From Candidatus Omnitrophota bacterium (GTDB lineage Bacteria; Omnitrophota; Gorgyraeia; Zapsychrales; Fredricksoniimonadaceae), in the NCBI GenBank assembly GCA_016201795.1, contig JACQCF010000023.1, positions 1 through 54,167 on the forward strand: a DNA stretch of 54,167 bases, read 5' to 3'. The translations under genes and the position numbers were made by a program. The notes beneath the pieces are model-generated. The model saw nothing but the letters and a program-made list of their open reading frames with translations, was not told the origin of the DNA and searched no databases. Position 1 is the first letter of the stretch. Each line of letters opens with the position of its first letter. Positions 637 to 54,167 of the stretch are shown here, piece after piece.

Positions 637-641
637 AGTTT

Positions 642-2462: not shown

Positions 2463-2464
2463 GG

Positions 2465-35238: not shown

Positions 35239-35256
35239 TCATTGGAAAAGGAGTTT

Positions 35257-37243: not shown

Positions 37244-37253
37244 AATGCCGTGC

Positions 37254-37315
37254 ATTATATACGAGCCCATTGGCTTTGACAAGGGCTAGATATTTGAATT
37301 GATGGGTGATATACT
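37254..37315. promoter_or_regulatory. Divergent promoters for the ppiD-like and phosphoesterase genes
   Basis: Minus: TTGTCA-17-TATAAT-10-ATG(37243); plus: TGaTATACT-8-ATG(37324). Confidence 0.55.
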
Positions 37316-39985: not shown

Positions 39986-40626
39986 TTGAGGAACACAAGG
40001 TCCAGAGGAATACCGCCACCCTTCAGGTGCAGGCCTTAAAATACCACAATCTCAGTTTTCTGTCTTTGGGGGCGTGGGTGGGAAGACTCTCTTTTTCCAA
40101 GGATTGGCTGCAAAAGAGGCTGCATGGAGTAAGGGGACAGCCCTTTGATATTAAAATTATAAACCAAGCGGCCGTTGTCTGTATATATATTTTGGCTGTC
40201 TATTTCTCATTTAATTTTATTTCTTCTCTGGTTGATCTATGGAGAATTCCCAATTTAGAGATTAAATCTTCTGAGAAGATAAGGCCTTTGAGTTTCCGAG
40301 AAAATTCGGTTTTGAAGACAGTTGCCTCTTCCTATCTTGAAAAGGTCAGGGAAAGGGATCTCTTTAAGATCGGCAAGGGGACCGATAGGGCAACAGAAAA
40401 TAAGGAAGTTAAAGGCCCCTCCTCCCAGGTGATCGAGGCTTCTGGAAATTTGAAATTGGTAGGAATCTCCTGGTCCAGCGATCCTGACGCGATCGTTGAA
40501 GACACCAAAGCTACCAAGACTTTTTTTGTCAAGGTGGGGCATACGATCGGAGAGGGGAAGGTACAGGCAATTTTTAAGGACAGAGTGATCTTAAGGTATG
40601 GCGACGAGGAGATCGAGTTAAAATGA
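39937..40626 (+). CDS. GspC/PilP-like bitopic protein
   Basis: One TM; C-terminal LKLVGISW..DAIVED..FVKVG..VQAIFKDRVIL domain. Confidence 0.7.
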   Translation: MAPERSITPEKQLLRLIEEHKVQRNTATLQVQALKYHNLSFLSLGAWVGRLSFSKDWLQKRLHGVRGQPFDIKIINQAAVVCIYILAVYFSFNFISSLVDLWRIPNLEIKSSEKIRPLSFRENSVLKTVASSYLEKVRERDLFKIGKGTDRATENKEVKGPSSQVIEASGNLKLVGISWSSDPDAIVEDTKATKTFFVKVGHTIGEGKVQAIFKDRVILRYGDEEIELK

Positions 40627-42569
40627 GAGATCCAAATGCGCTTATCTTCCCGATTGTTATTTTCATTGCCACGGGCCTGTGGTTATCGGCGGGAGGGACT
40701 CTTTATTCCGAGGAAAGGGCTGATATCGTAGTGAACGTTTCCAACAACTCCACTACCAATCAAGTTATCGCGCAGAATGTTGTTACCGAAGAAAAGGCGG
40801 CACAGCAACCTAAGCAGGAATCGGTTTCGAGCGAGAAGGTTGTTTCTCCTGCACCCCAGAAGGGAGACGAGGTTTCTCCCATTCCCGGCGGTATGGAAGG
40901 AAAGCTTTCCCTCGATTTACGTAGTATCGACATAGTGGATGCTCTTAAATTTTTAGCTGTCAAAGTCGGATTGAATATCATTGCGACCAAGAATGTCACC
41001 GGCAGGGTAACGCTCATGGTTGATAGCGTTCCCGTCAAGGATGTATTCGATATTATGTTGCGCTCCAACGGCCTGGCGTTTGTTAAAGAGGGAGATATCT
41101 ACAATGTGATGACTGAGGATGAATACAAAGCAATGTACGGCAGAAAATTTTCTGATTTGCGTCAGGTTAAAGCTTTTCGACTCCAGTACGCCATACCCGA
41201 ACAGGCCTTCAGTATGCTGGATGCCTTGAAAAGCGATGTGGGCAGGGTGCTCGTTGATCCGGATTCGGGAACTGTCATGATTATGGATACGCCGGATAAT
41301 ATCAAGCGTACCGAACAGGCCTTGTTGACGCTGGAGCAGAAAAATCTGGTGCAGGTTTTTACTCTTAAATATGCCAGGGCCAAAGAGGTGGAAGAGCAGC
41401 TCAAGCCTCAGTTGGATGGCAAAAAGGTAGGTTTCATTAAGGCCGATGATCGTTCTAACCAGATTATCGTCCAGGCCCTGCCTGAAAGGATGAGCGCTAT
41501 CGAACGCTTGATCAGCTCCATGGACAAAAAAACCAAAGAGGTTCTCATTGATACCAAAATCGTAAAGGTCAAATTATCTACCGAGCTTACCTCAGGGGTG
41601 GACTGGGAAGGATTATTTAACGTGGGCTCACAATTAGGCACCACCTATGTAGGTTCGTATCCTTTCAGCGTTTTACAGGCGTCTACCGCGGCGTGGCAGT
41701 CGCGGCAGAGTTTTCTTAATTCGCAGGGCGGTAATATCGGTGCCTATCCTTTCAGCGGCAATAGCGCAAGCGTAAATGCCAGCCAGAAGGTTGCTCCCGG
41801 TGAAATGCACGTTGGTGTCATCAAAAACAAGAAGGATTTTGATACCGTGATTAAGTATCTTCAGACGCTCGGGAATACCCAGCTTCTTTCCAATCCCAAG
41901 CTAGCGGTAATCAATAACCAAGAAGCCAAGATTCACATCGGAGAGCGCCAGGCCTATGTGACGAGTACCACGACCAGTGGCCAGACCACCTCCACCGTTT
42001 CCGAAGAGGTTACCTTCATAGATGTCGGTATCCAGCTGTCTGTAACCCCGACCATCAATGACGATGGCTATGTCACTATGAAGGTTAAGCCCGAGGTGTC
42101 GAGTGTTGTCTCCTACATCACCACACCAAGCGGCAATAAGATCCCCATCATTGATACTTCCACCGCGGAGACTACGGTCATGGTAAAAGACGGTTCCACG
42201 ATTATCATCGGTGGCTTGCGTAAAGAAGAAAAGGCTTCGAGTTCCACGGGCATTCCTTTCTTAAGTAAGATCCCTTTTATCGGTTTGTTTTTTCAATCAG
42301 GAAGCAAGAAAACGGAAAGAACGGAATTGTTGGTTATGTTGACTCCGCATATCGTCACCGGAGATACCCTGGTCACCGGAGATGAAAGGGAGTTTGGGAC
42401 CAAGCCCGGCAAGGAATATCAACCATACAAGCCGTTTCTCGCTGATACCGATTTGGAACCCGCCCAACATGTTATCGAGCAGAAGATGAAACCTTATCGG
42501 GAATATGGTGACCTTAAGCCGCAGCTCAAAGAATTGGCCCCAGTTATCAAAGGAGGCATAAGTGACTAA
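40623..42569 (+). CDS. Secretin (GspD/PilQ family)
   Basis: N0 and N3-like repeats, LLSNPKL, DVGIQLSVTP, VKDGSTIIIGGL, GIPFLSKIPFIG. Confidence 0.95.
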   Translation: MRDPNALIFPIVIFIATGLWLSAGGTLYSEERADIVVNVSNNSTTNQVIAQNVVTEEKAAQQPKQESVSSEKVVSPAPQKGDEVSPIPGGMEGKLSLDLRSIDIVDALKFLAVKVGLNIIATKNVTGRVTLMVDSVPVKDVFDIMLRSNGLAFVKEGDIYNVMTEDEYKAMYGRKFSDLRQVKAFRLQYAIPEQAFSMLDALKSDVGRVLVDPDSGTVMIMDTPDNIKRTEQALLTLEQKNLVQVFTLKYARAKEVEEQLKPQLDGKKVGFIKADDRSNQIIVQALPERMSAIERLISSMDKKTKEVLIDTKIVKVKLSTELTSGVDWEGLFNVGSQLGTTYVGSYPFSVLQASTAAWQSRQSFLNSQGGNIGAYPFSGNSASVNASQKVAPGEMHVGVIKNKKDFDTVIKYLQTLGNTQLLSNPKLAVINNQEAKIHIGERQAYVTSTTTSGQTTSTVSEEVTFIDVGIQLSVTPTINDDGYVTMKVKPEVSSVVSYITTPSGNKIPIIDTSTAETTVMVKDGSTIIIGGLRKEEKASSSTGIPFLSKIPFIGLFFQSGSKKTERTELLVMLTPHIVTGDTLVTGDEREFGTKPGKEYQPYKPFLADTDLEPAQHVIEQKMKPYREYGDLKPQLKELAPVIKGGISD

Positions 42570-43629
42570 ATTTAAAATACTGGCTATCGTTGTTTTAATC
42601 TTCATCCTTGGCCAGAGCGCAGGACTGCTTTATTTCGTCAGTAAGACACAAGGGCTTTTGCAGAAGAATCAGGAGCTGGTCGCTAAAGTCGAAAGGTACG
42701 GCCCGGGGTACGAAAAATTGGATAAACAGTTTCAGGAAGTGAGTAGTAAATATACCGCGGCGGCGAAGGAGCTGGAGACGGTTAAGGCAGACCGCGAAAA
42801 CATTCTCGCTCAGGCAAAAAGCCTTTTGGGAGAAAGGGCAAAAGCAGGAGAACTGGAAGAGGTAGCGGAGAAGGCGAAGGCAGAGGTAAGCTCAGTAAAA
42901 AAGGAGTTGGAGGAGGCAAAGAACCAAGGCCTTTCTTTGAAAGAAGAAATAAATAAATTCCAGGTCACGCAGGCCCAGCTGACTAAGGAAAGAGACGAGC
43001 TTAAAATTGCCTATGAGAAGGCGGCAAAAAACACTATCGTAAAGGAGCTCAACAACAAGATTTCTGGCTTGCAGAAAGATTTGAAGAGCAAGATTGCCCA
43101 GGCCCAGACGGAAAAGAAGAAACTGGAAGCGAAATTGAAACTGGCCGAGAAGGAAAACTCTCGCCTTACCGAAGAGAAGAACAAATGGAATACCGCCAGG
43201 GATCAGCTGACCGGTCAGTTGAATGACTATAAGAAAAATTACGTTGGGGCAGTTAAGAAAAACAAGGCGCTGGAGTCGAAGATAAAGGAGACGCCGGCTA
43301 AGTTCACCGAGATTGCCCGTCAGAACAAGGTTCTTTTAAGGCAGACTGCCGAGATGCATTATAACCTGGGGGTATTTTATACCAAGAACAAGGAATATGA
43401 TCGGGCGGTAGCGGAATTCGAGAAGGGTATCGAGATCAATCCCAACGATGCCTCTGCCCACTTTAATCTCGGGTATATCTATTCCGAATATCTAGTGAAC
43501 CGCAAGAGGGCGATGGAGCATTTCCGCCATTTTTTAAGGCTGACAAAGAGCGACGATCCCGATGTGGATTGGGTGAAGAAATACGTGCTTACGTGGGAGA
43601 CGTATGAAGGCAAAATGCCGATGCAGTAA
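42562..43629 (+). CDS. Membrane-anchored long coiled-coil protein with C-terminal TPRs
   Basis: TM, about 230-aa coiled coil, HYNLGVFY and HFNLGYIY TPRs. Confidence 0.85.
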   Translation: MTKFKILAIVVLIFILGQSAGLLYFVSKTQGLLQKNQELVAKVERYGPGYEKLDKQFQEVSSKYTAAAKELETVKADRENILAQAKSLLGERAKAGELEEVAEKAKAEVSSVKKELEEAKNQGLSLKEEINKFQVTQAQLTKERDELKIAYEKAAKNTIVKELNNKISGLQKDLKSKIAQAQTEKKKLEAKLKLAEKENSRLTEEKNKWNTARDQLTGQLNDYKKNYVGAVKKNKALESKIKETPAKFTEIARQNKVLLRQTAEMHYNLGVFYTKNKEYDRAVAEFEKGIEINPNDASAHFNLGYIYSEYLVNRKRAMEHFRHFLRLTKSDDPDVDWVKKYVLTWETYEGKMPMQ

Positions 43630-43679: not shown

Positions 43680-44234
43680 ATGGACAAGATAGGCAAAATA
43701 GCAGCATTAGTGGTGGTCGCAGTTTTGGTAGGGTCGGACTTGGTCTATGCCGGATTGTGGGGGAAATCCGAGCCGGAGGCATCCCAGCCGGTTCCCGCGG
43801 CACTTAAGGTAGTTCCAACCCAAGAGGTGCTGGCGAAAAAGAAGGCTGACCTCAATAACACGGAGTGGGCTGTCGAAGTAAAACCCATGAACGGCAAGGG
43901 TCAAGCGGAAAAGGATACGCTGACTTTTACTGACGGCAAGGTGGTTTCCAAGAATATGGGGCAGAAAGGTTACAGCCCTACCAATTATTCCGTTAGATTA
44001 CTGGATGATGAAACCTTTACTTGGGAAACCATGCAGACCTCTGAGAAGGATGGTGTCGCATTCTGGCGTGGCGACATCGGCCCTGATGGAATAATGCGCG
44101 GTGTCATCAGTAAACGTGACAAGAAAAATAATGGCAACGATTTTAGTTTCTTAAGCGTGAGCAGCCAGAAGATTACTCCGGTACAGCCTGAACCAGCACC
44201 GGCGCAGCCTGAACCAGCTCCCGCTAAGAAATAA
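43680..44234 (+). CDS. Exported beta-rich hypothetical protein
   Basis: AGGAGG SD, signal peptide, Pro-rich tail from a 21-nt tandem duplication (44184-44218). Confidence 0.75.
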   Translation: MDKIGKIAALVVVAVLVGSDLVYAGLWGKSEPEASQPVPAALKVVPTQEVLAKKKADLNNTEWAVEVKPMNGKGQAEKDTLTFTDGKVVSKNMGQKGYSPTNYSVRLLDDETFTWETMQTSEKDGVAFWRGDIGPDGIMRGVISKRDKKNNGNDFSFLSVSSQKITPVQPEPAPAQPEPAPAKK

Positions 44235-44269: not shown

Positions 44270-44830
44270 ATGACGAAAGATAAGGTTTTTCATAGGCAGA
44301 TTATATTTATAATTGCCTTAGGCGCAGTCTGTCTCCTTGCGGGGGCGAGCCTTGCCGCTGCTGGCATCAAGTTTAGCGCGGCAGTGGATAAAATGGAATA
44401 TAAAACCGATGAGCCGATAAACATCATCTTTAGTTTGAAAAACGAAGGTAAAGAGGCGGTTTATGTCAACAGGCGATTTTATGTTGGTTTGGAGTCGATG
44501 CCGAAGCAGAAGCGGGATGTCTATCTTTTAGTAACCTCTCCTTCCGGGAAAAAGCTTACTTCTCCCAATAATTACGAGGCGGGTTTACCTAAAAGCGATT
44601 ATTTTGAACTGCTGGAGCCAGGAAAGGAAGTAAAATCAGAATACCCGCGCAACTTAAGAGGTTTTTTTGAGTTTAACGAGCCGGGGACTTACAAGGCGGT
44701 GGCTGTCTATCAGAATGTGTTTGGTGAAGAATTGGGCCTGAATGTTTTTAAGGATAAACTTGTTTCCCAACCGGTGTCATTTACCATTGTAAAAGCGGCG
44801 AGTGCCGCTCAAGGGACGGATAAGAAATGA
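44270..44830 (+). CDS. Exported hypothetical protein (Ig-like beta-sandwich suspected)
   Basis: Signal peptide; DKMEYKTDEPI..LKNEG, LEPGK, PGTY, SQPVSFTIV. Confidence 0.7.
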   Translation: MTKDKVFHRQIIFIIALGAVCLLAGASLAAAGIKFSAAVDKMEYKTDEPINIIFSLKNEGKEAVYVNRRFYVGLESMPKQKRDVYLLVTSPSGKKLTSPNNYEAGLPKSDYFELLEPGKEVKSEYPRNLRGFFEFNEPGTYKAVAVYQNVFGEELGLNVFKDKLVSQPVSFTIVKAASAAQGTDKK

Positions 44831-46302
44831 ACTTTTTTGTTTTTTTCTTAGTGTTATTTGGGTGTTGCTCCGCTGGGGCCTACGATTATAAGGAGATCCT
44901 CAAGGTGGATGAGGTGGGCGAGGCCTTCGGTAAATCAGTAAGTCAAAGGGACTTTCTCTATTATTATATCACCGCCTCCCGTTTTACCCGCTCAGAAAAT
45001 AAAGGGGAGCGCACCGATGAGGATGTACGGCAGGAGGCCTGGCAGAACCTCATTTTTGTTAAAGAAGCCAAAAACCTCGGCATTGAAATTCCCGCACAAG
45101 AAGTCACGGTAGAGGTCAAACGCCTGGTGGAAGAAAAAAATATAAACTATGGCACAGAAAAATATGCCGTGTGGGTAATGAATACTTTTGGGGAAGACTC
45201 CCAAACTTTTGAGCGCCGGATTGAGGATTTGTTGACCATTAATAAACTTCTTAAGATGAAACTGGACCCACAGGTCACCGTCACCGAAGAGGAAATGAAA
45301 GAGAGATTCCTCAATGATTACAATTCTTTTGAGAGCGAGTACATTCTTTTCGGTAAGGACAAAGAAGCCGCGGATTTCGTCAAACAATGCCGGCAGAACC
45401 CTAAATTGTGGTTTGACACCTACCAGGCCAAAAAACCTTTAGGCCAGAAGGGGGCCTCCTGGATTAACATTATGGCTTTGGGCGCCCTTATCGACCTGTG
45501 GCACATTCCCAAAGACGATGCCATTCGCATCCTCAACAGCAAGCCGGGAGATTTCATCGCCGCTAATAATTATTACGGTCCTGTAGCCGTGCGTCTGCTT
45601 TACGCCAAAAAGGTAAATTTAAAAGACTATGATGAGACTAAGCAGAAATATTACCGCCAGATGCTGACCGCTGGCAAAAAGCACAAGATCGCCCAGGACT
45701 GGCTCAATGAGCTTTTTAAGAGGGCCAGTTTTCGGGATTTTATTAAAGAGAAGGAGGACGCGGCCAAGAAGGAAGAAATGAAAGGAAAATCCTCCATCGT
45801 TTTAGAAACCAACCAGGGCAGGATAGAATTGAAATTATTCCCTGATATCGCGCCGCTGGCCTGTGAAAATTTCATTGGATTAGTGGAAAAAGGTTATTAT
45901 AACGGCGTTACTTTTCATCGGGTGGTTAAAGATTTTATGATCCAGGGTGGAGACCCCACGGCCACAGGCGGCGGGGGAGAGTCGATTTGGAAAAAACCTT
46001 TTGCCGATGAGATTTCTGACAAGGTTCAATTTGACAAAGGCGGTATTTTAGCCATGGCCAACAGCGGTTCCGACACTAATGGCAGTCAGTTTTTTATTAC
46101 CGCCAAGCCCACACCGTGGCTCAATGGCAGGCACACGATTTTTGGTGAGGTGACCTTCGGCATGGATGTGGTCAACAAAATCGATACTGTTTCGACGGAT
46201 AAAAATGACAAGCCCCAAAAGATTCAGAAGGTTATCAAGGCTTATGTGAAAAAAATGGAACCTGTGGAAAAACAGGAGAGGAAGAAAAATGAAGGCGCAT
46301 AG
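44827..46302 (+). CDS. SurA-N-like domain fused to cyclophilin-type PPIase
   Basis: C-terminal FHRVVKDFMIQGGDP, LAMANSG, GSQFFIT, HTIFGEV; N-terminal EAKNLGIEI..VTEEEMK. Confidence 0.85.
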   Translation: MNFFVFFLVLFGCCSAGAYDYKEILKVDEVGEAFGKSVSQRDFLYYYITASRFTRSENKGERTDEDVRQEAWQNLIFVKEAKNLGIEIPAQEVTVEVKRLVEEKNINYGTEKYAVWVMNTFGEDSQTFERRIEDLLTINKLLKMKLDPQVTVTEEEMKERFLNDYNSFESEYILFGKDKEAADFVKQCRQNPKLWFDTYQAKKPLGQKGASWINIMALGALIDLWHIPKDDAIRILNSKPGDFIAANNYYGPVAVRLLYAKKVNLKDYDETKQKYYRQMLTAGKKHKIAQDWLNELFKRASFRDFIKEKEDAAKKEEMKGKSSIVLETNQGRIELKLFPDIAPLACENFIGLVEKGYYNGVTFHRVVKDFMIQGGDPTATGGGGESIWKKPFADEISDKVQFDKGGILAMANSGSDTNGSQFFITAKPTPWLNGRHTIFGEVTFGMDVVNKIDTVSTDKNDKPQKIQKVIKAYVKKMEPVEKQERKKNEGA

Positions 46303-46777
46303 ACTCATGTTAAAAACGGTGATTGTCTTAGTCTGCGGGTGGTCGGGCATTGCTTGCGCGCAATCGATCAATAGTCAGACTAATACAACTACTCAGACGA
46401 CAAATGCCACAGCTGCCGCTGTGACAGATACCACGACGGCTGCCACTCAAGATAGTGGTGGGGCTATCGCCACTTCTGGGCAAAAAGAAATCCAAGGCGA
46501 GGTCAGTGCTATTGGTAAGGGTTATATTTCCATTGTTTATGAGCGCGATACGGCAAAAGGCATTGAATACGAAATGATGTTGCCCCTCGATGAGAACATA
46601 CAGTTTCAACATAAAAAAAGTCTTAAGGAGTTCGCTATCGGTGATACTGTTAAGGTAAGATTTGAAGATGCCACCGAAGAAGATAATGCGAAGGTTCAAC
46701 ATTTGAAGCGCAAGGCCAGGGTGATCAGTTTTGTGAGTTCGGCGGCGCCGACTCCGCCTGGATCCAGCGCTCAATAA
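46289..46777 (+). CDS. Exported hypothetical protein (Thr-rich linker plus small beta-barrel)
   Basis: Signal peptide, T/A-rich stretch, GEVSAIG...LKEFAIGDTVKVRFE. Confidence 0.7.
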   Translation: MKAHRLMLKTVIVLVCGWSGIACAQSINSQTNTTTQTTNATAAAVTDTTTAATQDSGGAIATSGQKEIQGEVSAIGKGYISIVYERDTAKGIEYEMMLPLDENIQFQHKKSLKEFAIGDTVKVRFEDATEEDNAKVQHLKRKARVISFVSSAAPTPPGSSAQ

Positions 46778-46806
46778 ATAAAGCGTGCAGGGTGATAAAA
46801 TAGGAG

Positions 46807-49800
46807 CTGGCTATCCTTAAAAGACAAAATCGTTTCGCCTTTTGTCATTTTTTATTAAAGGGTATTTGGGGTGTAGTGTTTGCCGCCCTGTTCTTCTGGT
46901 CTGCGCAGGCCCAGGCCACTGTGCAGATTAACCAGGTGTTGAGGGGCAGCTATACTTTTACTGGTGGAAGCAGCGGAGTTGGTGGAGAGGCAAGCACAGT
47001 CGTTGCTATTGGCGCAACCGTCAATACGGCCAAGTCCATTATACTACTAAGCACCTCTGCCAGCTATAATGCCCCCGGCGAGTCGCTTTTTTCTGCCTAC
47101 TTTGATGACAGTTCTCACATTATCATTCAGCGCGGTCTGGCCAGCGAGAATAATACCGGCACTCCCACCGTCAACTGGCAGGTCGTCGAATTTGCCAATG
47201 GCGTAACGGTCACCGCAGGTTCTACCAGCCTAGGCACTACCATCACTTCTAAAGTAGTTACTTTGCCCAGCAGTCTTACCGATGGCAAAGCCATGGTCAT
47301 TCTTAACGGAGGCACTCTCACCGGTATGTTTGAAAATTACTATTATTCACTCGGTAACCAGAGCGGCCGCACTTTAGCTGCCGGCAACGACGAAGTCTGG
47401 ACGCCAACGGCAGATATCACTACTTACGGTGATGCCAATAATGCTGCTCAAATAACCATCCAGCGTAATGATAAGGATTCAGACTCCTCATCGAAGTCGG
47501 TGAATGTTGGACTGACGGTGTATTATCAGGTCATCTCGTTTGACGCGGATGTGAGTATACAGCATGGTACGAGTAGCATCACCAATACTGCGTCCTCAGT
47601 CACAGCTACTGTGACATCGGTTGATACTACCAAATCGATGCTGTTTTTTACTTATCGTGCCCCGGCGAATGCCAGTGGTGCAGGTTTAGGGGTGGAATCA
47701 GATTATGCCTTAAGTGGCGCGATTACCAACTCTACCACTTTAACCTTTACCCGTGCCACCACCGGCTCCACCGGCTCATCAGCACCGCTGAATATTGCTT
47801 GGTTTCTGTTGACCTTTACAGACGCCACATCAATCCTCAGCGGGAGCTTAAGTAGCGGCACTAATGCTTCGATTTCGACTGGGACACTGACGCTGGATAC
47901 TGTCCATAATTTCAGTCTTATCTCGGCCTCCGGCGCCAGCGGTGATAGCGCCACTGGATTTGGTGATATATTATGGCGACAAACTTTCAGCAGTACCGTT
48001 CTCACGGCCAACCGTGACGGCGGCGGGACCACCGCCACTACCATTCCGTATTTTATAGCCCAACCTCCGTTAGTCAAAGTGGTTACTCCCGCTGGCAGCG
48101 AGACTTGGAAAGTGCACGATACTCAAAATATTACTTGGACAGCAGCAGCTTCGGTTGCCAATGTCAAAATCGAATATTCTGGCAATAATGGAGGAGCGTG
48201 GAATACCATCATTGCCTCCACCGCTTCCTCGGCCGGTTCTAATAACTATAGCTGGACCGTGGGCTATAATTCTGACGGCAGCAGCATATTCCCAAGTTCG
48301 GAAGTAGCCACCCAGTGTTTGGTCAGGATTACAGATACTGCCAGTTCTAGTAATACGATGACCTCTCCCGCGTTCACTATTAAAAGCCAACTTTCCATTA
48401 CGGCACCCGTGGGCGGGGAACTCTGGCTGGTCACCGATACCACGCGTGCTATCACCTGGAACAGCTATGGGAATTTTAACAGCACTGTTAAATTGCAGTA
48501 TTCCATTGATGCGGCTCACACGACTTGGACTAATATCAGCGGTGCCACCACTATAACAACAGCAACCAATGGATCTAATAGCTATACCTGGAGCTCCATT
48601 CCCATCGCTGCGACCGGGGCAACCGACAAGATACAAGTGGTTTCCAATGCCGCCACTCCTACCGTTTCCAGTGCCAGCCCCAGCAATTTTGAAATCCGCG
48701 GTTCCATCACCGTTACCGCTCCCGCGGCCAATGCCGTATGGTCTACCGGCTACGCCAACACTATCACATGGACCTTAGGTTCCACCACCACCAACGTAGA
48801 TCTTTCCTATTCTGTGGATAACGGAGTCACTTATACCTCCATTGCTACCAATCAAAACGCGCAGAATATTGACTCTACTCACGGCTCCTATAGCTGGACT
48901 CCGGCGCTTAGTCTAACCCCCAGCACCACATCCTACATCAAGGTGGTTGACCACAGCAGTAGTAACGTGTCTGCAATCAGCGGTAAGTTTACTATACAAG
49001 CATCGATAACGGTCAATTCTCCTGTCGGCGGAGAAGTCTGGAAGGTGGATGATACCAATGCCATAACATGGACCTTGGGCGGCGGCACCAGCATCACCTA
49101 TGTTACCATTAAATACTGCACGGATTTCAATACCAGTCAGACCTGGCAGACTGTGACAGGCGCAGGACAGGTTGATGCTACCCTGGGCACTTTTAACTGG
49201 ACTGTCCCTGATGCCATTGGCGCTGCTACTGGAGTGAGGATTTATAAATATCTGGATGCCACCATTTATGGTACATCCCCCGCCGCTTTTAGTATCAAAG
49301 GCAACATTTCAATCATTAATCCCGCCGCAGGCATCTACATGCCCGCTAATTCGAATTACGTGATTACCTGGACTCCTCACGGCGGTTTGCACACGGCTTA
49401 CGGTGATAATTTCAAGCTGGAATATTCTAAAAACGGGGGTACAAGCTTCAGCACTATTTATACCGGTCTCAATGGAAGTTCCGGCTCAACTACCTGGAAT
49501 TCTGCAGACATTCCTATAGATAACCTGCAGGCAAGCAACACACAAATAAAAATAGGTTTGTCAGGAGATGACAGTGCCCCCAATGGTGTTTATGGTCAAT
49601 CGAGCAGTTTTTATATTATTGGAAATCTTAGCCTTACTTATCCTACTGGCGGTCAAACTTTTAATATCGGCAATGCTTGTGTGATCACGTGGACCGCTTA
49701 TCCGAGCGGTAATAACCAATTGGGCGCGGTACGCATCGCTTACTCTATAAATAGCGGGACTGACGGATATCCTGACACCCAGGTCATTGCAACCGGTATC

Positions 49801-52800
49801 GACGCTTCCACGGGCCCCACCGGTTATAGTTGGACTATTCCCAACACCGACCTTTTGTATTCTACGGACAGGATACAGGTAAAACTTGCCAGTGATGCAA
49901 GCGGACAAGTCAAAACTGCCTCGACTACTGATTTTAATATAAAAGGAAGCTTGACCCTGACCCGTCCTTCTACCAATTCGGGAGACACTGCTTTAACCTG
50001 GTTATGCGGAACCCAAGAGAATATTACCTGGACGAGGCAGGGGAGCTCCATGGGCGCGGTCGATATCTTTTATTCCAAAGACAATGGCAATGACCTGTAT
50101 GTCAACGTTATAGATAATAGCGGGACAATTGCTTCTTCTGCCCAGACTTATGCCTGGACCATTCCCAGCGATGCTACGGTTTTCAAGACCGGAGATAACG
50201 GGGAAAATACTCAGGTTAAAATCAAGCTGGTTTTGCATAGCGACTCCTCGGGTGTTAATTCTAAGTCTGCCCAACCGCTGACCATTAAGTCTCAATTCAC
50301 CAACCTTGTCCCTAACGGCGGCACTATAACGGTGGGGTCACCTTTTAATATTACGTGGACCACCAAAGGTGATGTGGCAACGGTCAATGTCAACTACAGT
50401 ACTAACAGCGGCGCCGACGGCTACCCCAATGCTATCGCTACGAATGTGAGTAATGCCGGGGGCTGGAACTGGAATCCTGTCAACTGTCCTGTTAGCGGCA
50501 CCATACGAGTGAAAGTTGTAAGCACCGCTCATAGTGACATTAACACCCCATCCGCGGGGGATGTCAATGCCAAGGGTAGTTTGCAAATAACGGCCCCCAC
50601 TTCCGCCAACACGGGGACCAGCGCTTTGATTCCCGGCCATACGTTTAGGATTACCTGGGTGACTAACGGCGGGGTGGGTTCGAATGTTGGATTGGTGGAT
50701 TTATATTATGCGCAGGATGGCACCACGTTTGGCAGCTCTTTTGCTCAGGTGGATACGTCAGTGCAAAATTACTACGACTGGACCGTTCCCAGCCCAGCCA
50801 GTCTTCCGATTACTACTGCTAAACTCAAGGTGACGGAGCATGATGATAGCAGCGTAACCTCTACCTCGCCGGATCCCTTTGATATTAGAGGAAATCTCTG
50901 GGATGGCACGACCAATCATGCCCTCGTCGAGCCCAACGGCGGAGAAATATATTATGTCGGCGGTAGCAATATCAACATGCAATGGAAATTTCAAGGAGTT
51001 GTCGGTAACTGTGACCTTTATTACGATACCAGCGCAGGTAGCGGCGGTTATCCCAATCACATCGCCACGGTTGCCTATAATAACAATGTCAGCAACGGCA
51101 TTGCCTCTTACAGCTGGACGGTCCCCGGTTCTGCCGGCACCCAATATAGAGTCAAACTTGTTTCTGTCAATGACCCAACCTATGCTTATGCCAACTCCCA
51201 GGGGAATTTTGTTGTCAAAGGTAATGTGGTGCTGACAGCACCGGGTATGAATGCCGGCTCCCCTGAGGTCTGGTATGTGGATAGTACCAATCCCGTTTCC
51301 TGGAATATGACAGGCGGCATATCCCAGGTGGATTTACTTTTGGATACTCACGGCGGAAGCGATAGCTATACCGACTATGTCATTGCCTCCGGTATTGGTG
51401 GCAGCGCATCACCTTATCAATGGAGCATTGCCCAGGAGACAGACAGACAAACGATAACTTCCAACACTTGCCGGGTGCGCGTTAGGGACCATAATGACAC
51501 CACGGTCTATTCCAGTTCCACCAATAACTTTTCCATGAAGCCTCGGGTCACTATTGGCGCACTTCAAAATACACCGTGGGCAGTACAAGATCAGCCGACC
51601 ATTACGTGGACTAACAGTGGTACTATTTCCCAATTGAATTTGTATTATTCGTCAGCTGGCCAAAGCGGACCATGGGGAAGCGCACAAATAACCGGTATTA
51701 GCGCCGCGGCGGGAAGTGTTATTTGGACCATTCCGACCAGCGCAGTTTCGTGGGGGAATGCGGTTTTGAAATTGGTGAGAGTAGAGAGCGGAACGGAAGA
51801 TACCGCTGTTACCAGTCAATCTCCCAACTTTACAATTAAAGGGAAGATTAATGTTACCGCGCCTTTGACCAATCAGACTTATAATGTCCAGCAGACCGGG
51901 ACGATTACCTGGAATGTGGTGGGAGCCGTGGGCAATGTGGACATCAAATACAATACGAATTCTGCCGGCGGTTATCCGGACACGGACTGGGCTGCTTTTA
52001 CGGGGGCAACAGGCATAGTCCCTGATTATTGTACCAATGTCCCTGGAACACCCTACACCTTTACCATTCCCAGCACTACGGCACCATCGGTAAAAATTAG
52101 AATCTTTGAATCCAACCATGCTGAGGTATTTGGCCCTCCCATGGCTGGTTCACCGACGCATAATTTTAAAGGAAGTATTATTTTTGATAAACCCCCTGGC
52201 AATCCAAGTACTAAAAATCAAACCATCACCATAGGACCCAGTTCCTACACCATCAACTGGTCACTGGTGGGTGATTTTACCACGCTGCGCGCTTATTATA
52301 AGAAAGTCGGCGATGCTCAATGGTCGCAGATTGGCTCTGATTTAGGAGGGACCATTACTCAGACGAATTATACACCCATTGACTCTGATATCACCGCTGC
52401 CGATGGTTCCAATAAGGTTCTCTTTCGTGTTGAGGATGCCTTAGATCCTAGTAACGTGTACGCTGAGACCGGTACTAATGAAGGCAATACCGTTGTGGGT
52501 GCTTTGCAGATATTAGAACCCGTCACGCCAGTGGAGCTGACCGTGGGCAGCACGGTTGAGGTAAAATGGAAAAAATATGGAAACATAGGGAATCTCAAAT
52601 TCGAATTGTGGAATGGCTCCCAATGGTTGAATAATGCCGGGGGTTCCAATCTTCCCGATACTTATCCTTCTGGAACATCGGGGGAGAGCGGTATTGTGCT
52701 CGTACCCAACTGGACAGTGCCGGATAAAATTGGATCTGGTCTCCAAATTCGCGTCACGTCTATTACTTATCCATCACTCACCAGCACGACGGGCCAATTC

Positions 52801-54167
52801 ACTATTAAAGGCGGCTTCTCTTCCATTAATACTCCTGCCACTTGGTATGTGGGTCAAGATCATGTGATCAACTGGCAGGCCAATGGCAGTATGTCCAGTG
52901 TGAAAATCGAACTTTACAATGGTACCACTTGGGCGACCATTGCGAATGCTTATGATAACGGGGGGGCCGGACTTATCAACGGGGCCAACTCTTACACGTG
53001 GAGCGGTTCGGATACTCTTCAGCAGCAGAGAAGTTCAACGTGTAAAATCAGGGTTACCTCCAATCAGAACCCCGATGTTTACATCGAAACAGGTAATTTC
53101 ACCTTAATTCCCCAAGTGACTGTCACAACACCCTCGCAGGCGTGGATTGCCGAAAGTAACAGCAACACCATTTCGTGGAATACCATCGCCGCTCCCACTA
53201 CCAATGTGGATATTATTCTCTCCGATGCCAACAATGGGACCGGTTACCCGGTGACTTTAGCCAGCAATATAGCCAAAGGTTCTTCTCCTTATGCCTCAAC
53301 CGTAACCCTTCCGGCGACATTAACGGCGGGGGCTACAATCCGCGTTCGGGATCACGATTTTCCTAACCTCATTTACGGAGACTCCAGTACCTTTAACGTG
53401 ATTGGTCAGATCATCATGTCTCCGACGGACAATACCCCCAACGCTTCTTCCAACTGGCCTGCGGGTTCCAGTCAGGCCATCACCTGGTCCAGCAAGGGGA
53501 ATTTAGGTCAGGTCAATATCAAGTTTAAACATGATGGCGGCTCCTATTCAGCGCCGTTGGCTGGTTCTCCTGTGGCGGTTTCTGACCATTCTTATACTTG
53601 GAGCTTGCCTACGGATGTCATTTCTCAACATGTGCAGGTTAAAATAGAATCGGTCAATAATCCCACACAGGAGTATGTGGAATCGCCGGAATTTTCAATA
53701 AGAGGAAGCTTTACTATCGACAGTCCGGGAACTGTAAATTCAGGAGATCCTTATACCATAACCTGGAGCCAGCCCGCTAATCAGGCGAATCTCATCCCCA
53801 ATGTTATTTTGCAGTTTTATGATGGTGCCGCTTGGAATTATATTATTTCCAGCGCGCCCCATACGGTTTCTAACACGGGAAGCTACAGCTGGTCAGTGCC
53901 TACCAATGTTCGTGCGACTACTTGCAAATTACAGGTTTCCGACCCTAATAATTCATCGGCAGTGGATCAGACCGACAATTTCGAAATCAGGCCTTCCATC
54001 AATGTTACTGCCCCCACCTCTGCCGCCCAATGGACCATCGGCACTCAAACGGGTAACAATATCGTCTGGTCCACCGTGGGACCTGTGCCCACAGTCAAGA
54101 TTGAATACTCCAAGGACAATGGCACCACCTTTAGCTATGTCATCGAAAGCTCCATTGACGGGGCCAG
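46807..54167 (+). CDS. Giant exported repeat protein (putative adhesin/surface filament), truncated by the window end
   Basis: Frame 1 after TAG 46801: no stop in the lines translated fully (to ~49980 and the last line), and repeat motifs stay in this frame to the end (>2450 codons); signal peptide ending AQA|TVQ; 4 N-terminal repeats then about 20 S/T/G/N-rich ~100-aa repeats; start codon uncertain. Confidence 0.92.
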   Translation, partial: MAILKRQNRFAFCHFLLKGIWGVVFAALFFWSAQAQATVQINQVLRGSYTFTGGSSGVGGEASTVVAIGATVNTAKSIILLSTSASYNAPGESLFSAYFDDSSHIIIQRGLASENNTGTPTVNWQVVEFANGVTVTAGSTSLGTTITSKVVTLPSSLTDGKAMVILNGGTLTGMFENYYYSLGNQSGRTLAAGNDEVWTPTADITTYGDANNAAQITIQRNDKDSDSSSKSVNVGLTVYYQVISFDADVSIQHGTSSITNTASSVTATVTSVDTTKSMLFFTYRAPANASGAGLGVESDYALSGAITNSTTLTFTRATTGSTGSSAPLNIAWFLLTFTDATSILSGSLSSGTNASISTGTLTLDTVHNFSLISASGASGDSATGFGDILWRQTFSSTVLTANRDGGGTTATTIPYFIAQPPLVKVVTPAGSETWKVHDTQNITWTAAASVANVKIEYSGNNGGAWNTIIASTASSAGSNNYSWTVGYNSDGSSIFPSSEVATQCLVRITDTASSSNTMTSPAFTIKSQLSITAPVGGELWLVTDTTRAITWNSYGNFNSTVKLQYSIDAAHTTWTNISGATTITTATNGSNSYTWSSIPIAATGATDKIQVVSNAATPTVSSASPSNFEIRGSITVTAPAANAVWSTGYANTITWTLGSTTTNVDLSYSVDNGVTYTSIATNQNAQNIDSTHGSYSWTPALSLTPSTTSYIKVVDHSSSNVSAISGKFTIQASITVNSPVGGEVWKVDDTNAITWTLGGGTSITYVTIKYCTDFNTSQTWQTVTGAGQVDATLGTFNWTVPDAIGAATGVRIYKYLDATIYGTSPAAFSIKGNISIINPAAGIYMPANSNYVITWTPHGGLHTAYGDNFKLEYSKNGGTSFSTIYTGLNGSSGSTTWNSADIPIDNLQASNTQIKIGLSGDDSAPNGVYGQSSSFYIIGNLSLTYPTGGQTFNIGNACVITWTAYPSGNNQLGAVRIAYSINSGTDGYPDTQVIATGIDASTGPTGYSWTIPNTDLLYSTDRIQVKLASDASGQVKTASTTDFNIKGSLTLTRPSTNSGDTALTWLCGTQENITWTRQGSSMGAVDIFYSKDNGNDLYVNVIDNSGTIASSAQTYAWTIPSDATVFKTGDNGENTQVKIKLVLHSDSSGVNSKSAQPLTIKSQFTNLVPNGGTITVGSPFNITWTTKGDVATVNVNYSTNSGADGYPNAIATNVSNAGGWNWNPVNCPVSGTIRVKVVSTAHSDINTPSAGDVNAKGSLQITAPTSANTGTSALIPGHTFRITWVTNGGVGSNVGLVDLYYAQDGTTFGSSFAQVDTSVQNYYDWTVPSPASLPITTAKLKVTEHDDSSVTSTSPDPFDIRGNLWDGTTNHALVEPNGGEIYYVGGSNINMQWKFQGVVGNCDLYYDTSAGSGGYPNHIATVAYNNNVSNGIASYSWTVPGSAGTQYRVKLVSVNDPTYAYANSQGNFVVKGNVVLTAPGMNAGSPEVWYVDSTNPVSWNMTGGISQVDLLLDTHGGSDSYTDYVIASGIGGSASPYQWSIAQETDRQTITSNTCRVRVRDHNDTTVYSSSTNNFSMKPRVTIGALQNTPWAVQDQPTITWTNSGTISQLNLYYSSAGQSGPWGSAQITGISAAAGSVIWTIPTSAVSWGNAVLKLVRVESGTEDTAVTSQSPNFTIKGKINVTAPLTNQTYNVQQTGTITWNVVGAVGNVDIKYNTNSAGGYPDTDWAAFTGATGIVPDYCTNVPGTPYTFTIPSTTAPSVKIRIFESNHAEVFGPPMAGSPTHNFKGSIIFDKPPGNPSTKNQTITIGPSSYTINWSLVGDFTTLRAYYKKVGDAQWSQIGSDLGGTITQTNYTPIDSDITAADGSNKVLFRVEDALDPSNVYAETGTNEGNTVVGALQILEPVTPVELTVGSTVEVKWKKYGNIGNLKFELWNGSQWLNNAGGSNLPDTYPSGTSGESGIVLVPNWTVPDKIGSGLQIRVTSITYPSLTSTTGQFTIKGGFSSINTPATWYVGQDHVINWQANGSMSSVKIELYNGTTWATIANAYDNGGAGLINGANSYTWSGSDTLQQQRSSTCKIRVTSNQNPDVYIETGNFTLIPQVTVTTPSQAWIAESNSNTISWNTIAAPTTNVDIILSDANNGTGYPVTLASNIAKGSSPYASTVTLPATLTAGATIRVRDHDFPNLIYGDSSTFNVIGQIIMSPTDNTPNASSNWPAGSSQAITWSSKGNLGQVNIKFKHDGGSYSAPLAGSPVAVSDHSYTWSLPTDVISQHVQVKIESVNNPTQEYVESPEFSIRGSFTIDSPGTVNSGDPYTITWSQPANQANLIPNVILQFYDGAAWNYIISSAPHTVSNTGSYSWSVPTNVRATTCKLQVSDPNNSSAVDQTDNFEIRPSINVTAPTSAAQWTIGTQTGNNIVWSTVGPVPTVKIEYSKDNGTTFSYVIESSIDGA

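Follow-up and report, generated by a model that had tools for sequence, protein, structure and literature searches.

Results

Genes on the secretin side of the cluster

The window, a stretch of 54,167 nucleotides that makes up the whole of contig C1 of an Omnitrophota genome, carries towards its 3' end a series of plus-strand genes whose first member on the secretin side encodes an AAA_22 ATPase of the ExeA/MshM-like kind (39113..39985, +; PF13401, E 2.8e-20). It is followed by a gene for a T2SS protein C-like product (39937..40626, +; PF11356, E 2.1e-6, 28.1 bits against a cut-off of 27) and by the gene of a 648-aa secretin, an outer-membrane channel of the T2SS/T4P type (40623..42569, +), which matched Secretin (E 1.5e-49), Secretin_N (E 4.9e-24), STN and the GspD N0 domain. 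The secretin gene lies 4 kb upstream of the start of the giant gene that is the subject of this work. Next comes a gene for a coiled-coil and TPR protein (42562..43629, +; Pfam TPR families, E down to 9.8e-11), which from its position may be MshN-like.

The genes that follow encode an exported 184-aa protein (43680..44234, +) and a 186-aa protein with a hydrophobic N-terminus (44270..44830, +), neither of which had a Pfam match or belongs to a known family, then a 491-aa exported protein that ends in a prolyl isomerase domain of the cyclophilin type (44827..46302, +; PF00160, E 3.2e-53, residues 325-472), a possible folding helper. Directly upstream of the giant gene is that of a 162-aa exported Ser/Thr-rich protein (46289..46777, +) with a conserved C-terminal domain of ~95 aa, for which Pfam gave only a sub-threshold, compositional match. 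The 29 loci of other genomes that bear the N-terminal head described below share these neighbours unequally: homologues were found directly upstream of the head for the 162-aa protein in 19 loci, upstream of it for the 184-aa protein in 18, and for the cyclophilin-domain protein in two. A gene for a SurA-like periplasmic prolyl isomerase (35768-37282) is also located near the cluster.

A giant gene split over two contigs

Frame 1 of the window contains no stop from 46807 to 54165, that is over 2,453 residues. The in-frame stop on its 5' side is a TAG at 46801-46803, from which the frame remains open to the end of the window; on a uniform-codon estimate, (61/64)^2453, the chance of a stop-free frame this long is ~1e-51. 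An earlier note on this DNA had reported an unannotated giant frame of more than 2,450 aa, still open. The computed translation bears out the frame and the lack of an in-frame stop. It was not wholly unannotated, though: the ORF listing shows it, only as a 3'-open ORF of 2,430 aa beginning at GTG 46876, and the protein collection includes this 2,430-aa version (P0044). The open end likewise needs rewording. Because the window is the entire contig C1, it is an assembly break and not a biological end, and the gene continues elsewhere.

The rest of the gene was found on the minus strand of contig C4, from 25111 down to 13964, as a 5'-open frame of 3,716 codons that runs off the contig end without a stop. 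The two pieces amount together to 6,169 residues, and the window frame is the 5' 40% of one gene of ~18.5-18.8 kb with a product of ~6,170-6,275 aa. The C4 part adds 28.5 repeat units and, behind them, a conserved 880-aa C-terminal module that is followed by a single transmembrane (TM) helix and a cytoplasmic tail. When the window protein was compared with the genome by tblastn, Ig units appeared only on C1 and on this end of C4. Both phases fit at the join: C1 leaves two bases of a codon and C4 supplies one, while the last C1 unit ends at position 49 of the unit HMM and the C4 piece begins at position 54. The orthologue in genome G040 is colinear with both pieces. In other genomes head and anchor lie on one contig and one strand, 17-22 kb apart, in open frames reaching 7,257-7,630 aa (e.g. 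G403:C64, G263:C1), and the full-length P0020 (6,107 aa) unites signal peptide, head, units, C-terminal module and TM helix in one protein.

The terminal 141 nt of the window (54027..54167, +) are the first k-mer of a branch node of the assembly graph, not a biological end. Four sequencing runs, all of one study, were retrieved, none of them listed as RNA. In two runs that are a possible source of the DNA, a 591-nt contig starting at 54027 extends 450 nt past the window (depth 32.6 and 28.7) and a flanking contig ends at 54056 (depth 11.6 and 10.1). Other contig ends of the genome overlap by exactly 141 nt (C6/C16, C16/C20); the ends of C1 and C4, when compared, had no common 141-nt overlap. 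In the G040 orthologue, 106 residues separate the position corresponding to the end of C1 from that corresponding to the start of C4, so that about one unit (~309 nt) is probably missing at the join. A direct abutment (0-nt gap), which had first been assumed from the codon phase, is less likely, being disfavoured by the absent 141-nt overlap, the 591-nt contig and the additional G040 residues. The depth ratios leave room for more than one missing unit, and the gene length could rise if a block of repeats has collapsed.

Start, signal peptide and N-terminal head

The first canonical start of the frame is GTG 46876. We prefer as start an ATC at 46813, a likely non-canonical codon preceded by a ribosome-binding site AGGAG (46802-46806) and a 6-nt spacer (element 46802..46815, +), since initiation at the GTG would leave the signal peptide without its charged n-region and with only half of its hydrophobic core. 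This peptide (46807..46917, +) has, in translation, a basic n-region, a hydrophobic core and A-x-A motifs at residues 33-35 and 35-37; the G040 orthologue starts with ATG and has a 35-aa signal peptide of the same build.

It is followed by an N-terminal head of ~390 aa (46918..48084, +) made of three beta-rich lobes, each closing in a W-x-V-x-E-F-like strand in a 12-sequence alignment. An AF2 model of the head with two units reached a mean pLDDT of 81.7 and a pTM of 0.77. The head is present in 41 of 400 other genomes of the phylum, always within large open frames, and is missing from the other genomes of the same family (0/24 in one survey, 0/14 in another), indicating that it is not a conserved function of the lineage. 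It had no Pfam match and no PDB relative by sequence profile. Comparison of the head-plus-two-units model with PDB, VIA wide and BFVD returned only Ig/FN3 arrays aligned on the two units, with TM-scores <=0.2; no recognised ligand-binding fold was found in these structure searches, which barely covered the head. A word-based search with the head gave just three weak matches, all to peptidase-C25 proteins (E 7e-10 to 2e-7). We treated them as compositional and left them out of the family counts, because phmmer aligns them repeatedly to a Ser/Thr-rich stretch at query positions 194-315. In the protein atlas the head fell among unnamed, mostly viral clusters (score 0.93), a lead only given the low recognition (1309).

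A stalk of divergent Ig-like units

Between the head and the contig end, the frame encodes a stalk of Kre9_KNH-type Ig-like units (48082..54165, +), delimited by a custom HMM, PF10342 and a structure model. The HMM, built iteratively from one unit, recognised 20 units of ~102 aa in the window piece (per-unit E 1e-12 to 1e-26), 19 of them whole and the 20th cut after its first half by the contig end. The units start at 48082, 48400, 48715, 49015, 49315, 49636, 49978, 50305, 50602, 50926, 51250, 51559, 51856, 52201, 52513, 52822, 53134, 53431, 53728 and 54007. Each of these positions is 6-28 nt downstream of one proposed in the earlier note, whose count of 20 units of about 100 aa and whose consensus motif were thus correct. 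The C4 piece yielded 29 unit matches with the same HMM, bringing the whole protein to 48-49 tandem units. Identity between units averages 28% at the protein level (range 13-46%, 47 whole units from both contigs), and Tandem Repeats Finder detected no repeat of period near 300 nt in 46807-54167, in agreement with the high divergence and old amplification suggested beforehand.

A resemblance of the motif to Kre9/KNH domains had also been guessed, rightly so at the level of the domain: PF10342 (Kre9_KNH) matched the window piece in nine stretches with 103.6 bits against a cut-off of 24.6 (E 9.5e-30) and the C4 piece with 78.2 bits (E 8.4e-22), again above the gathering cut-off, while NCBIfam gave 0 families on the window protein. 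The GPI anchor of the fungal Kre9 family does not carry over to the giant protein, which ends in a TM helix and a charged tail. The units at residues 391-603 were modelled by AF2 as all-beta, Ig/FN3-like beta-sandwiches (pLDDT 83-93). In structure they are matched best by FN3/Ig-like modules (3pdg_A, Z 9.4, rmsd 3.4, 88 aligned), and Foldseek likewise returned Ig/FN3 arrays. If extended, a stalk of 48-49 such units would measure of the order of 200 nm.

A membrane-proximal module shared across the phylum

The earlier note had recommended looking for an anchoring domain downstream, and such a domain is present in the C-terminal module on contig C4. Its ~880 aa comprise beta-sandwiches, a long coiled coil, an Ig domain and a helical bundle, and close with a further beta-sandwich and a three-helix bundle (mean pLDDT of the model 74.3); one TM helix and a conserved charged cytoplasmic tail of ~45 aa follow. 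The 6,169 residues contain only two hydrophobic segments, one at the N-terminus and one at residues 3643-3673 of the C4 piece. In a relative, P0085, a GGDEF domain comes after the TM helix, which places this end in the cytoplasm. Signal peptide, C-terminal TM helix and cytoplasmic tail therefore predict a type I topology, with the bulk of the protein outside the cytoplasmic membrane and the tail inside. Pfam and NCBIfam revealed no outer-membrane anchor and no T1SS, T5SS or T9SS signal in the giant protein, and Pfam no RTX, T9SS C-terminal or autotransporter domain.

The C-terminal module is common to 41 other proteins of 2,051-6,234 aa with 26-64% identity, and those that carry a taxon name are nearly all from Omnitrophota; 58 of the 65 family proteins longer than 700 aa contain at least three Ig units. 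Its last 250 aa (beta-sandwich, three-helix bundle and TM helix) constitute the anchor domain of an unannotated Omnitrophota family, which we found in 192 of 400 other genomes of the phylum and which also occurs as small membrane proteins of one, two or three copies. A search with this domain retrieved 839 cluster representatives at E <=0.001 and 645 at <=1e-10; two-copy paralogues in the same genome match it with E ~1e-25 to 1e-27. Among ten proteins scanned, the anchor domain had no Pfam match above the curated cut-off, the sole match being the separate GGDEF domain of P0085, and in the protein atlas it belongs to unnamed Omnitrophota clusters. Structural comparisons of the C-terminal module were generic: Foldseek against PDB returned multi-sandwich proteins (C3, alpha-2-macroglobulin, SlaB) with TM-scores <=0.19, and VIA wide returned transthyretin-like, Ig and three-helix-bundle matches with Z about 11 or less. 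A complex prediction of the anchor part (residues 616-882) with the b/delta subunit, run without controls, gave no answer (score 0.00) and weighs neither for nor against an interaction.

The giant gene heads an F-type ATPase operon lacking subunit a

The giant gene ends in a stop codon that overlaps the start of a gene for an epsilon subunit, and it is the first of an operon that continues in the order epsilon, c, b/delta, alpha, gamma, beta, that is an F-type ATPase without subunit a. Downstream on C4, Pfam identified b/delta, alpha, gamma, beta, T2SSE (with MshEN and PilZ) and T2SSF, with pseudopilin-like genes further on. The ATPase operon is thereby nested between the secretin side (ExeA-like, GspC-like, secretin and TPR genes) and genes for a PilB/MshE-type ATPase, a GspF/PilC homologue and pseudopilins. 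The genome contains four alpha/beta pairs and one subunit-a gene, the latter in a canonical operon on contig C7. The beta subunit retains a P-loop and a Walker-B/Glu region, and the c subunit its carboxylate. An anchor-domain gene directly precedes a-less F-type ATPase genes in 40 of the 40 distinct places examined (3/3 in the same genome, 9/9 loci from relatives and 29/29 across the phylum, with one duplicate locus).

Neither the Omnitrophota family with its common C-terminal module nor the position of the giant gene, first in an a-less ATPase operon inside a T2SS/T4P-like cluster, figured in the earlier note.

Discussion

Proposed working of the fibre

The giant gene product is probably the surface arm of an attachment machine, since an anchored fibre heads an unusual rotary ATPase operon within a secretion/pilus cluster. 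On balance we favour the view that it is a Sec-exported fibrillar adhesin, tethered to the inner membrane and docked to the ATPase of an Omnitrophota 'symbiotic F-ATPase/T4aP' locus. The data show how the protein is built, to which family it belongs, its topology signals and a gene order without exception; adhesion to host or prey, which the earlier note had suggested for the filament, is inferred, as are surface exposure and a physical or mechanical coupling to the ATPase. The fibre would be exported via Sec and threaded outward through the co-encoded secretin, aided by the pseudopilus system, while the C-terminal module would keep it tethered to the inner membrane. This module may dock to the a-less ATPase, where it would fill the place that subunit a has in the operon and perhaps act as stator in its stead. 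Contact with a host or prey cell would be made by the distal head and stalk, and ATP hydrolysis could move, tension or reset the fibre under c-di-GMP control. In a diderm, tethering to the inner membrane does not obviously leave a protein exposed at the surface, and we know of no precedent for tethered passage through a secretin. A single TM helix cannot stand in for the ion path of subunit a, and conserved gene order indicates co-expression, not contact.

A bolder version of this model, which we put forward as a tentative possibility, sees in the fibre the output arm of a rotary machine that a diderm bacterium drives with ATP: the C-terminal module would replace subunit a beside the c-ring and the b/delta stalk of an ion-blind F-type ATPase, and hydrolysis would turn, pull or reset a 200-nm arm reaching out through the secretin. 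If this holds, flagella and pili would be joined by a third kind of surface motor, one that corresponds in Gram-negative cells to the F1-like ATPase systems of mycoplasmas (gliding legs, MIB-MIP), and the small anchor proteins of one to three copies would be adaptors holding separately encoded fibres on the same motor.

Alternative explanations

It is somewhat unlikely, though to be taken seriously, that the protein is a passive fibrillar adhesin or coat, static or S-layer-like, and that the ATPase and T2SS/T4P genes serve only its export or assembly, or are merely co-regulated, without mechanical work on the fibre. Head, Ig stalk, coiled coil and C-terminal TM helix do form the architecture of static stalks. 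The best Foldseek match of the C-terminal module is the archaeal S-layer anchor SlaB (8qox_B, E 1.9e-8), a generic match whose TM-scores are only 0.11-0.18, and S-layer proteins recur in its VIA list (7ptp_A, Z 11.2); a coat or adhesion role has also been proposed for Omnitrophota giant proteins, in the accessible part of PMC10066038. On the other hand, the anchor domain precedes the a-less ATPase in all 40 places, including those where it belongs to small proteins without a fibre, which is tighter than usual co-regulation, and the T2SS/T4P system already has an ATPase of its own (T2SSE).

An envelope-internal role is rather improbable, in which the protein would never pass the outer membrane and would act as an inner-membrane-tethered spacer, corset or platform for the secretion/pilus system. 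The periplasm is the default destination of a protein with a Sec signal and a C-terminal TM helix, and both the lack of outer-membrane anchor or T1SS, T5SS and T9SS signals in Pfam and NCBIfam and the nearby periplasmic prolyl isomerases, cyclophilin-type and SurA-like, agree with such a location. However, an array of some 49 tandem Ig domains with a variable, horizontally patchy head is typical of surface proteins that are exposed and evolve fast, the fibre would be longer than any periplasmic dimension unless it were folded back or wound, and a secretin is encoded close upstream.

We consider it very doubtful that the PF10342 units bind or organise a beta-glucan-type polymer, of the cell itself or of its prey, making the protein a polysaccharide scaffold and not a protein adhesin. 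The PF10342 match is strong, and the literature found on this family, in its accessible part, concerns fungal wall or secreted proteins; yet to our knowledge no carbohydrate-binding site has been described for this domain, and the mean difference of 72% between units is of the kind seen in purely structural stalks. Finally, it is extremely improbable that the frames on C1 and C4 belong to two genes or to a pseudogene, or that a chimeric bin produced them, for although the join lies outside any sequence covered, the assembly graph has a branch at 54027 where a second contig of higher depth comes in and the start codon is non-canonical, codon and repeat phases agree across the contig ends, the G040 orthologue is colinear with both pieces, relatives have head and anchor in single open frames and the 2,453 + 3,716 codons include zero stops.

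Significance

Omnitrophota are abundant, ultra-small and uncultured bacteria that are thought to live on other cells. Their extra F-type ATPase beside pilus genes had already been noted, and the giant-fibre family described here offers a candidate for its partner or output: a very long exported fibre whose anchor is encoded immediately before the ATPase in every case examined. The anchor domain itself represents a widespread family that had been without annotation. If the link between fibre and ATPase is physical, it would provide a concrete and testable model for an F-type ATPase without an ion channel, and a tie to the mycoplasma systems where similar ATPases drive surface proteins. For annotation, the lesson is that such proteins are fragmented by assemblies, may begin at non-canonical codons and are misnamed 'GPI-anchored'.

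Comparison with known systems

The repeat unit is akin to fungal Kre9/Knh1 and Ser-Thr-rich GPI-anchored proteins in fitting PF10342, an Ig-like beta-sandwich. Those proteins have one domain, a Ser/Thr-rich linker and a GPI signal, whereas the giant protein is bacterial, strings 48-49 copies together in tandem and ends in a TM helix with a cytoplasmic tail, and does not belong with them as a protein; where NCBI calls two relatives 'Ser-Thr-rich GPI-anchored membrane family protein', the name of the domain has been transferred. SlaB, the membrane stalk of the Sulfolobus S-layer, resembles the C-terminal module in its succession of beta-sandwiches, coiled coil and C-terminal TM anchor. With an identity of 12% and the TM-scores given above, the likeness is generic, and SlaB is archaeal and has no link to an ATPase.

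The giant proteins of West-Roberts and colleagues are said to exceed 30,000 aa, a threshold that ours does not reach, and to combine many TM regions with SecA-like and enzymatic domains. They share with ours a very large Omnitrophota gene beside T2SS-like genes, for which prey adhesion was proposed (West-Roberts et al. 2023, bioRxiv 10.1101/2023.11.21.568195); the text of this preprint, in its accessible part, is without 'Ig-like', 'immunoglobulin', 'Kre9', 'secretin' and 'ATP synthase' and has one unrelated 'ATPase'. The available portion of Seymour et al. 2023 (PMC10066038) relates F-ATPase/T4aP loci of Omnitrophota to attachment and motility on host cells. Likened by gene content, our locus resembles the 'symbiotic' type-2/3-like loci described there, in which a non-respiratory F-type ATPase set lies within 10 kb of T4P/T2SS-like genes: it possesses a second F-type ATPase set distinct from the respiratory one and T4P/T2SS-like genes within that distance. 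It differs by the gene before the ATPase set, the Ig-repeat fibre, the anchor domain and the secretin, of which the accessible part of that account makes no mention. The 'giant ORFs' in the same partial source exceed 20 kb and have many TM helices, whereas the present gene is ~18.5-18.8 kb as assembled and encodes one TM helix besides the signal peptide.

In mycoplasmas, an atypical F-ATPase is required for the surface MIB-MIP system and co-purifies with it, according to the accessible part of Berlureau et al. 2026 (PMC12994834). The Type 3 'F1-like X0'/MIB-MIP clusters and our operon have in common a second, non-respiratory F-type ATPase in an operon with the membrane-anchored surface proteins that it serves in mycoplasmas; as far as that source was available, Type 3 clusters are without c and b/delta, and their membrane subunits are a 12-TM protein and an 87-kDa protein with two C-terminal TM helices. 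In contrast, the Omnitrophota operon includes c and b/delta and a partner with one TM helix and goes with a secretin/T4P system, and mycoplasmas are monoderm. In Mycoplasma mobile gliding, the Type 2 F-ATPase reportedly has very large TM-anchored surface proteins (Gli349, Gli521) as its output.

A fibrillar adhesin consists of a stalk, an adhesive domain and an anchor. Tandem stalk domains are present here, with 20 units in the window and 29 matches on C4, the well-modelled head is a candidate for the adhesive domain, and the C-terminal TM helix, as an inner-membrane anchor in a diderm, is no more than a candidate for the cell-surface anchor. SprB of Flavobacterium gliding, LapA, SiiE and MpIBP are fibrillar adhesins with Ig-like stalks that leave the cell by T9SS or T1SS and stay attached at the outer membrane, while the giant protein has a Sec signal and a C-terminal inner-membrane helix. 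They nevertheless combine, as it does, a long tandem Ig array with a distinct distal domain, and SprB is moved by a rotary motor.

A giant open frame built of Ig-like units

The frame that runs out of the window at its end belongs to a real gene, which encodes a giant, exported and membrane-tethered fibre of Ig-like repeats. Computed translation of positions 46807-54165 gave 2,453 residues with 0 stops, behind an in-frame TAG at 46801-46803, and thus upheld the claim of the earlier note that a giant ORF remains open to the window end. A stop-free run of 2,453 codons would occur by chance with a probability of ~1e-51 (uniform-codon estimate). In the ORF listing the frame appears only as a 3'-open ORF starting at GTG 46876. 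A profile HMM grown from a single unit recovered 20 units in the window piece (per-unit E-values 1e-12 to 1e-26), 19 of them whole and the last one truncated where the sequence stops, at HMM position 49; the 20 unit starts listed in the earlier note were all recovered, each HMM start lying 6-28 nt downstream of the coordinate proposed for it. Units have a mean length of 102 aa (range 95-118). Their supposed origin in an old amplification agrees with a mean identity between units of 28% (maximum 46%) and with the lack of any ~300-nt repeat detected by Tandem Repeats Finder in the window-gene DNA.

The likeness to Kre9/KNH domains, suspected from the motif, was a correct domain call: in Pfam the units fall into PF10342 (Kre9_KNH), which nine stretches of the window piece match at 103.6 bits (cut-off 24.6; E 9.5e-30). 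Reelin subrepeat B was a secondary Pfam match, and NCBIfam returned no family for the window protein. The literature that we found mentioning PF10342 has, in the portions of text available, fungal subjects throughout. The head (the ~390-aa N-terminal part, 46918-48084) and the first two units were modelled with AlphaFold2 from a 12-sequence alignment (mean pLDDT 81.7, pTM 0.77). Both units were predicted to be all-beta (pLDDT 83-93), with FN3/Ig-like modules as their best structural matches, e.g. CbhA 3pdg_A (Z 9.4, rmsd 3.4, 88 residues), and Foldseek likewise matched Ig/FN3 arrays, as expected of repeats folding as beta-sandwiches.

Continuation of the gene on a second contig

The window is the entire contig C1 of a 1.59 Mb genome in 28 contigs, rated 94.8% complete. 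A tblastn search of this genome with the window protein revealed units at one other place, on the minus strand at the edge of contig C4. The frame left open in the window finds its end here: 3,716 codons, open on the 5' side, extend inward from the contig edge and are closed by a stop at C4:13961-13963. The C4 piece opens at HMM position 54 of one unit and has 28 more units behind; at the junction C1 leaves two bases of a codon and C4 provides one. We took the two frames as one gene because relatives carry head to anchor in single proteins or open frames. P0020 is a complete 6,107-aa relative with signal peptide, similar head (holding an inserted repeat region), units, C-terminal module, TM helix and tail. 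In two other genomes (contigs G403:C64 and G263:C1), head and anchor were found on one contig and one strand, ~21 kb apart, the open frames there spanning 7,231-7,257 aa and 7,617-7,630 aa, respectively, and the longest anchor-bearing open frame, in genome G222, reached 12,861 aa. Within P0020, a block of several units, judged by eye, is present three times in near-identical form; this would suggest recent intragenic duplication and a variable stalk length in the family.

Other contig ends of the genome (C6/C16 and C16/C20) overlap by exactly 141 nt, indicating an assembly from a k=141 graph. Three contigs from two runs, which are possible sources of this DNA, meet at the window end: a 591-nt contig (depth 32.6 and 28.7) whose start at 54027 lies exactly 141 nt short of the window end and which extends 450 nt past it; a flanking contig (depth 11.6 and 10.1) that ends at 54056; and a 1,623-nt contig (depth 18.6 and 18.9) that enters at the same junction point. 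The window therefore stops at a graph branch. The orthologue P0003 of genome G040 is colinear with the C4 piece (residues 955-4693 versus 2-3706, 61% identity) and also matches the final part of the window piece, as far as P0003 residue 848; 106 residues of P0003 separate the aligned stretches. A junction gap of 309 nt, i.e. one unit, follows if C4 begins with the last 141-mer of the 591-nt contig, and such a gap preserves both the codon phase and the repeat phase. Our best estimate for the whole gene is ~6,270 codons and 49 units; without a gap, the total would shrink to 6,170 codons and 48 units. Depth ratios at the junction, roughly 1 : 1.6-1.9 : 2.8, are compatible with a second strain as well as with a collapsed in-frame multi-unit block of ~2,154 nt (seven units) within the gene.

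Signal peptide, translation start and head

Only two hydrophobic segments were detected in the 6,169 residues of both pieces, one spanning residues 10-33 of the window piece, the other residues 3643-3673 of the C4 piece. The former makes up the core of a signal peptide that also shows a basic n-region and A-x-A sites and that is intact only when translation starts upstream of the first canonical codon, as GTG 46876 would truncate it. An AGGAG at 46802-46806 on the plus strand is followed by 6 nt and then by ATC at 46813, and this non-canonical codon is the likely start. Together with the missing stop, such a start would explain why the gene was missed by the ORF track. The G040 orthologue has an ATG start and a 35-aa signal peptide of like build.

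In the alignment and the AlphaFold2 model, the head is divided into three lobes rich in beta structure, and a W-x-V-x-E-F-like strand is conserved in each lobe. Pfam gave no match for the head and a profile search against the PDB gave no relative; its fold cannot be called new, because structure searches with the head plus two-unit model aligned almost wholly on the two units. Its distribution is patchy: it is present in one of 40 close relatives and in 41 of 400 other phylum genomes, was not found in 38 searched genomes of the window's own family, and has its best match (51% identity) in a different family of the class, a pattern suggestive of exchange or of very rapid turnover at the distal end. 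Two exported proteins encoded upstream in the window measure 162 aa (46289-46777) and 184 aa (43680-44234); among 29 head-bearing loci of other genomes, 19 have a homologue of the former on the upstream side of the head and 18 a homologue of the latter. Neither could be assigned to a known family; these companions may be tip partners or dedicated chaperones.

A conserved C-terminal module with a widespread anchor domain

Anchoring domains, which the earlier note proposed to look for downstream of the repeats, were found on C4 in the form of a conserved C-terminal module with a TM helix. The 882-aa module was modelled from a 30-sequence alignment (A1) with a mean pLDDT of 74.3. The predicted model comprises beta-sandwich domains (residues 1-270), long helices (275-389), an Ig-like domain (392-479), a helical bundle (493-613), a further beta-sandwich (620-700), a three-helix bundle (708-789) and the TM helix (811-854); in the alignment, the TM helix and tail motif hardly vary from one family member to another. 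Comparison with solved structures yielded generic matches (SlaB, complement C3 MG arrays and three-helix bundles). The module is common to 41 other proteins of 2,051-6,234 aa (E from about 0 to 1e-34), the named ones being almost all 'hypothetical protein' of Candidatus Omnitrophota/Omnitrophica. The label 'Ser-Thr-rich GPI-anchored membrane family protein' is attached to two of them, and Deltaproteobacteria, Margulisiibacteriota and PVC group are recorded for one each. Most of these relatives are fragments beginning within the repeats, which indicates that assemblies break these genes. Three or more units are present in 58 of the 65 family proteins longer than 700 aa.

The last ~250 aa of the module (beta-sandwich, three-helix bundle and TM helix), which we call the anchor domain, match numerous small proteins: 839 cluster representatives at E <=0.001, and 645 at <=1e-10, were recovered in an exhaustive HMMER search. 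Among the best 150 matches, one is under 200 aa (likely a fragment), 40 measure 200-340 aa (likely one copy), 60 measure 341-530 aa (likely two copies) and 16 measure 531-700 aa (likely three copies or other), while 10 of 701-1,500 aa and 23 of over 1,500 aa are likely fusions. Pfam reported nothing above cut-off for the domain itself in 10 anchor-domain proteins, and the protein atlas returned only unnamed Omnitrophota clusters. Among 400 other phylum genomes, 192 encode the domain. In one relative, P0085, a GGDEF domain lies behind the TM helix, as would be expected if the C-terminus were cytoplasmic. The genome studied here also has two two-copy anchor paralogues, on contigs C17 and C27. 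At the latter locus (L016:2342-6258), an 868-aa repeat protein is followed by the two-copy anchor protein and then by an F-type ATPase gene set without subunit a (hereafter a-less); fibre and anchor therefore occur either as separate genes or fused.

Genomic association with an a-less ATPase and secretion genes

The anchor domain is invariantly encoded ahead of an a-less F-type ATPase, within a T2SS/T4P-like cluster. All three anchor-bearing places of the genome (C4, C17 and C27) have F-type ATPase genes directly next. The anchor gene directly precedes the ATPase genes in 9 of 9 loci of relatives and in 29 of 29 loci across the phylum, one of which is the same place as a relatives' locus, so that the adjacency holds at 40 of 40 distinct places with 0 exceptions. 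The genome has four F-type alpha/beta pairs versus one subunit-a gene, the latter in a separate canonical operon on C7, and each of the three a-less sets (C4, C17, C27) is preceded by an anchor-domain gene. The position of this gene is roughly that of the subunit-a gene in canonical ATPase operons. A P-loop and a Walker-B/Glu region are both retained in the beta subunit of the locus, as is the carboxylate in its c subunit.

On C4, the giant gene is followed by epsilon, c, b/delta, alpha, gamma and beta, the epsilon start overlapping the giant-gene stop. Behind beta lie a PilB/MshE-type secretion ATPase with MshEN and a C-terminal PilZ (L002:787-2916, minus strand), a GspF/PilC homologue, pseudopilin-like genes and three further genes. 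PilZ/MshEN in this ATPase and GGDEF in P0085 point to c-di-GMP control of the system. Upstream in the window are encoded an ExeA-like ATPase, a GspC-like protein, a secretin, a TPR protein, two small exported proteins, a cyclophilin fusion and the 162-aa exported protein. Two exported prolyl isomerases are found near the giant gene, the 491-aa cyclophilin fusion (44827-46302) and a SurA-like PPIC protein (35768-37282, minus strand), as is a thioredoxin-like protein (35242-35757). These are possible folding helpers for a ~49-domain stalk.

Discussion

These results establish the gene, its domain architecture, its topology signals, its family and the invariant gene order that places the anchor domain ahead of the a-less ATPase. 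The fibre would reach the cell surface most simply via the co-encoded secretin, and would attach the cell to host or prey. We propose that the anchor module contacts the a-less ATPase, and ATP hydrolysis may act on the fibre. The boldest reading, that of an ATP-driven surface arm, strikes us as possible and rather doubtful.

The locus type is that of the 'symbiotic' F-ATPase/T4aP locus, for which host-cell attachment and motility were proposed; the available portions of that main text mention no gene in front of the ATPase set (Seymour et al. 2023, PMC10066038). Ig-like domains, Kre9 and secretin are absent from the texts of the West-Roberts 2023 preprint and of a 2026 complete-genome preprint, and the ATPase mentions in both are unrelated. 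In the main texts searched, we found no published description of the fibre family or the anchor domain. Giant Omnitrophota surface proteins are known, as are ATPase/pilus loci, so that the giant gene is not categorically new. The variant found here, in which the fibre is fused to a conserved and unannotated ATPase partner, is undescribed, and this fusion gives the enigmatic a-less ATPase a candidate output.

In mycoplasmas, according to the portions of text available, an atypical F-ATPase is encoded after MIB-MIP, is required by that surface system and co-purifies with it, by a mechanism described as unknown (PMC12994834). The mycoplasma MIB-MIP F-ATPase is thus a functional precedent for the Omnitrophota locus, a likeness that does not make their surface parts homologous.
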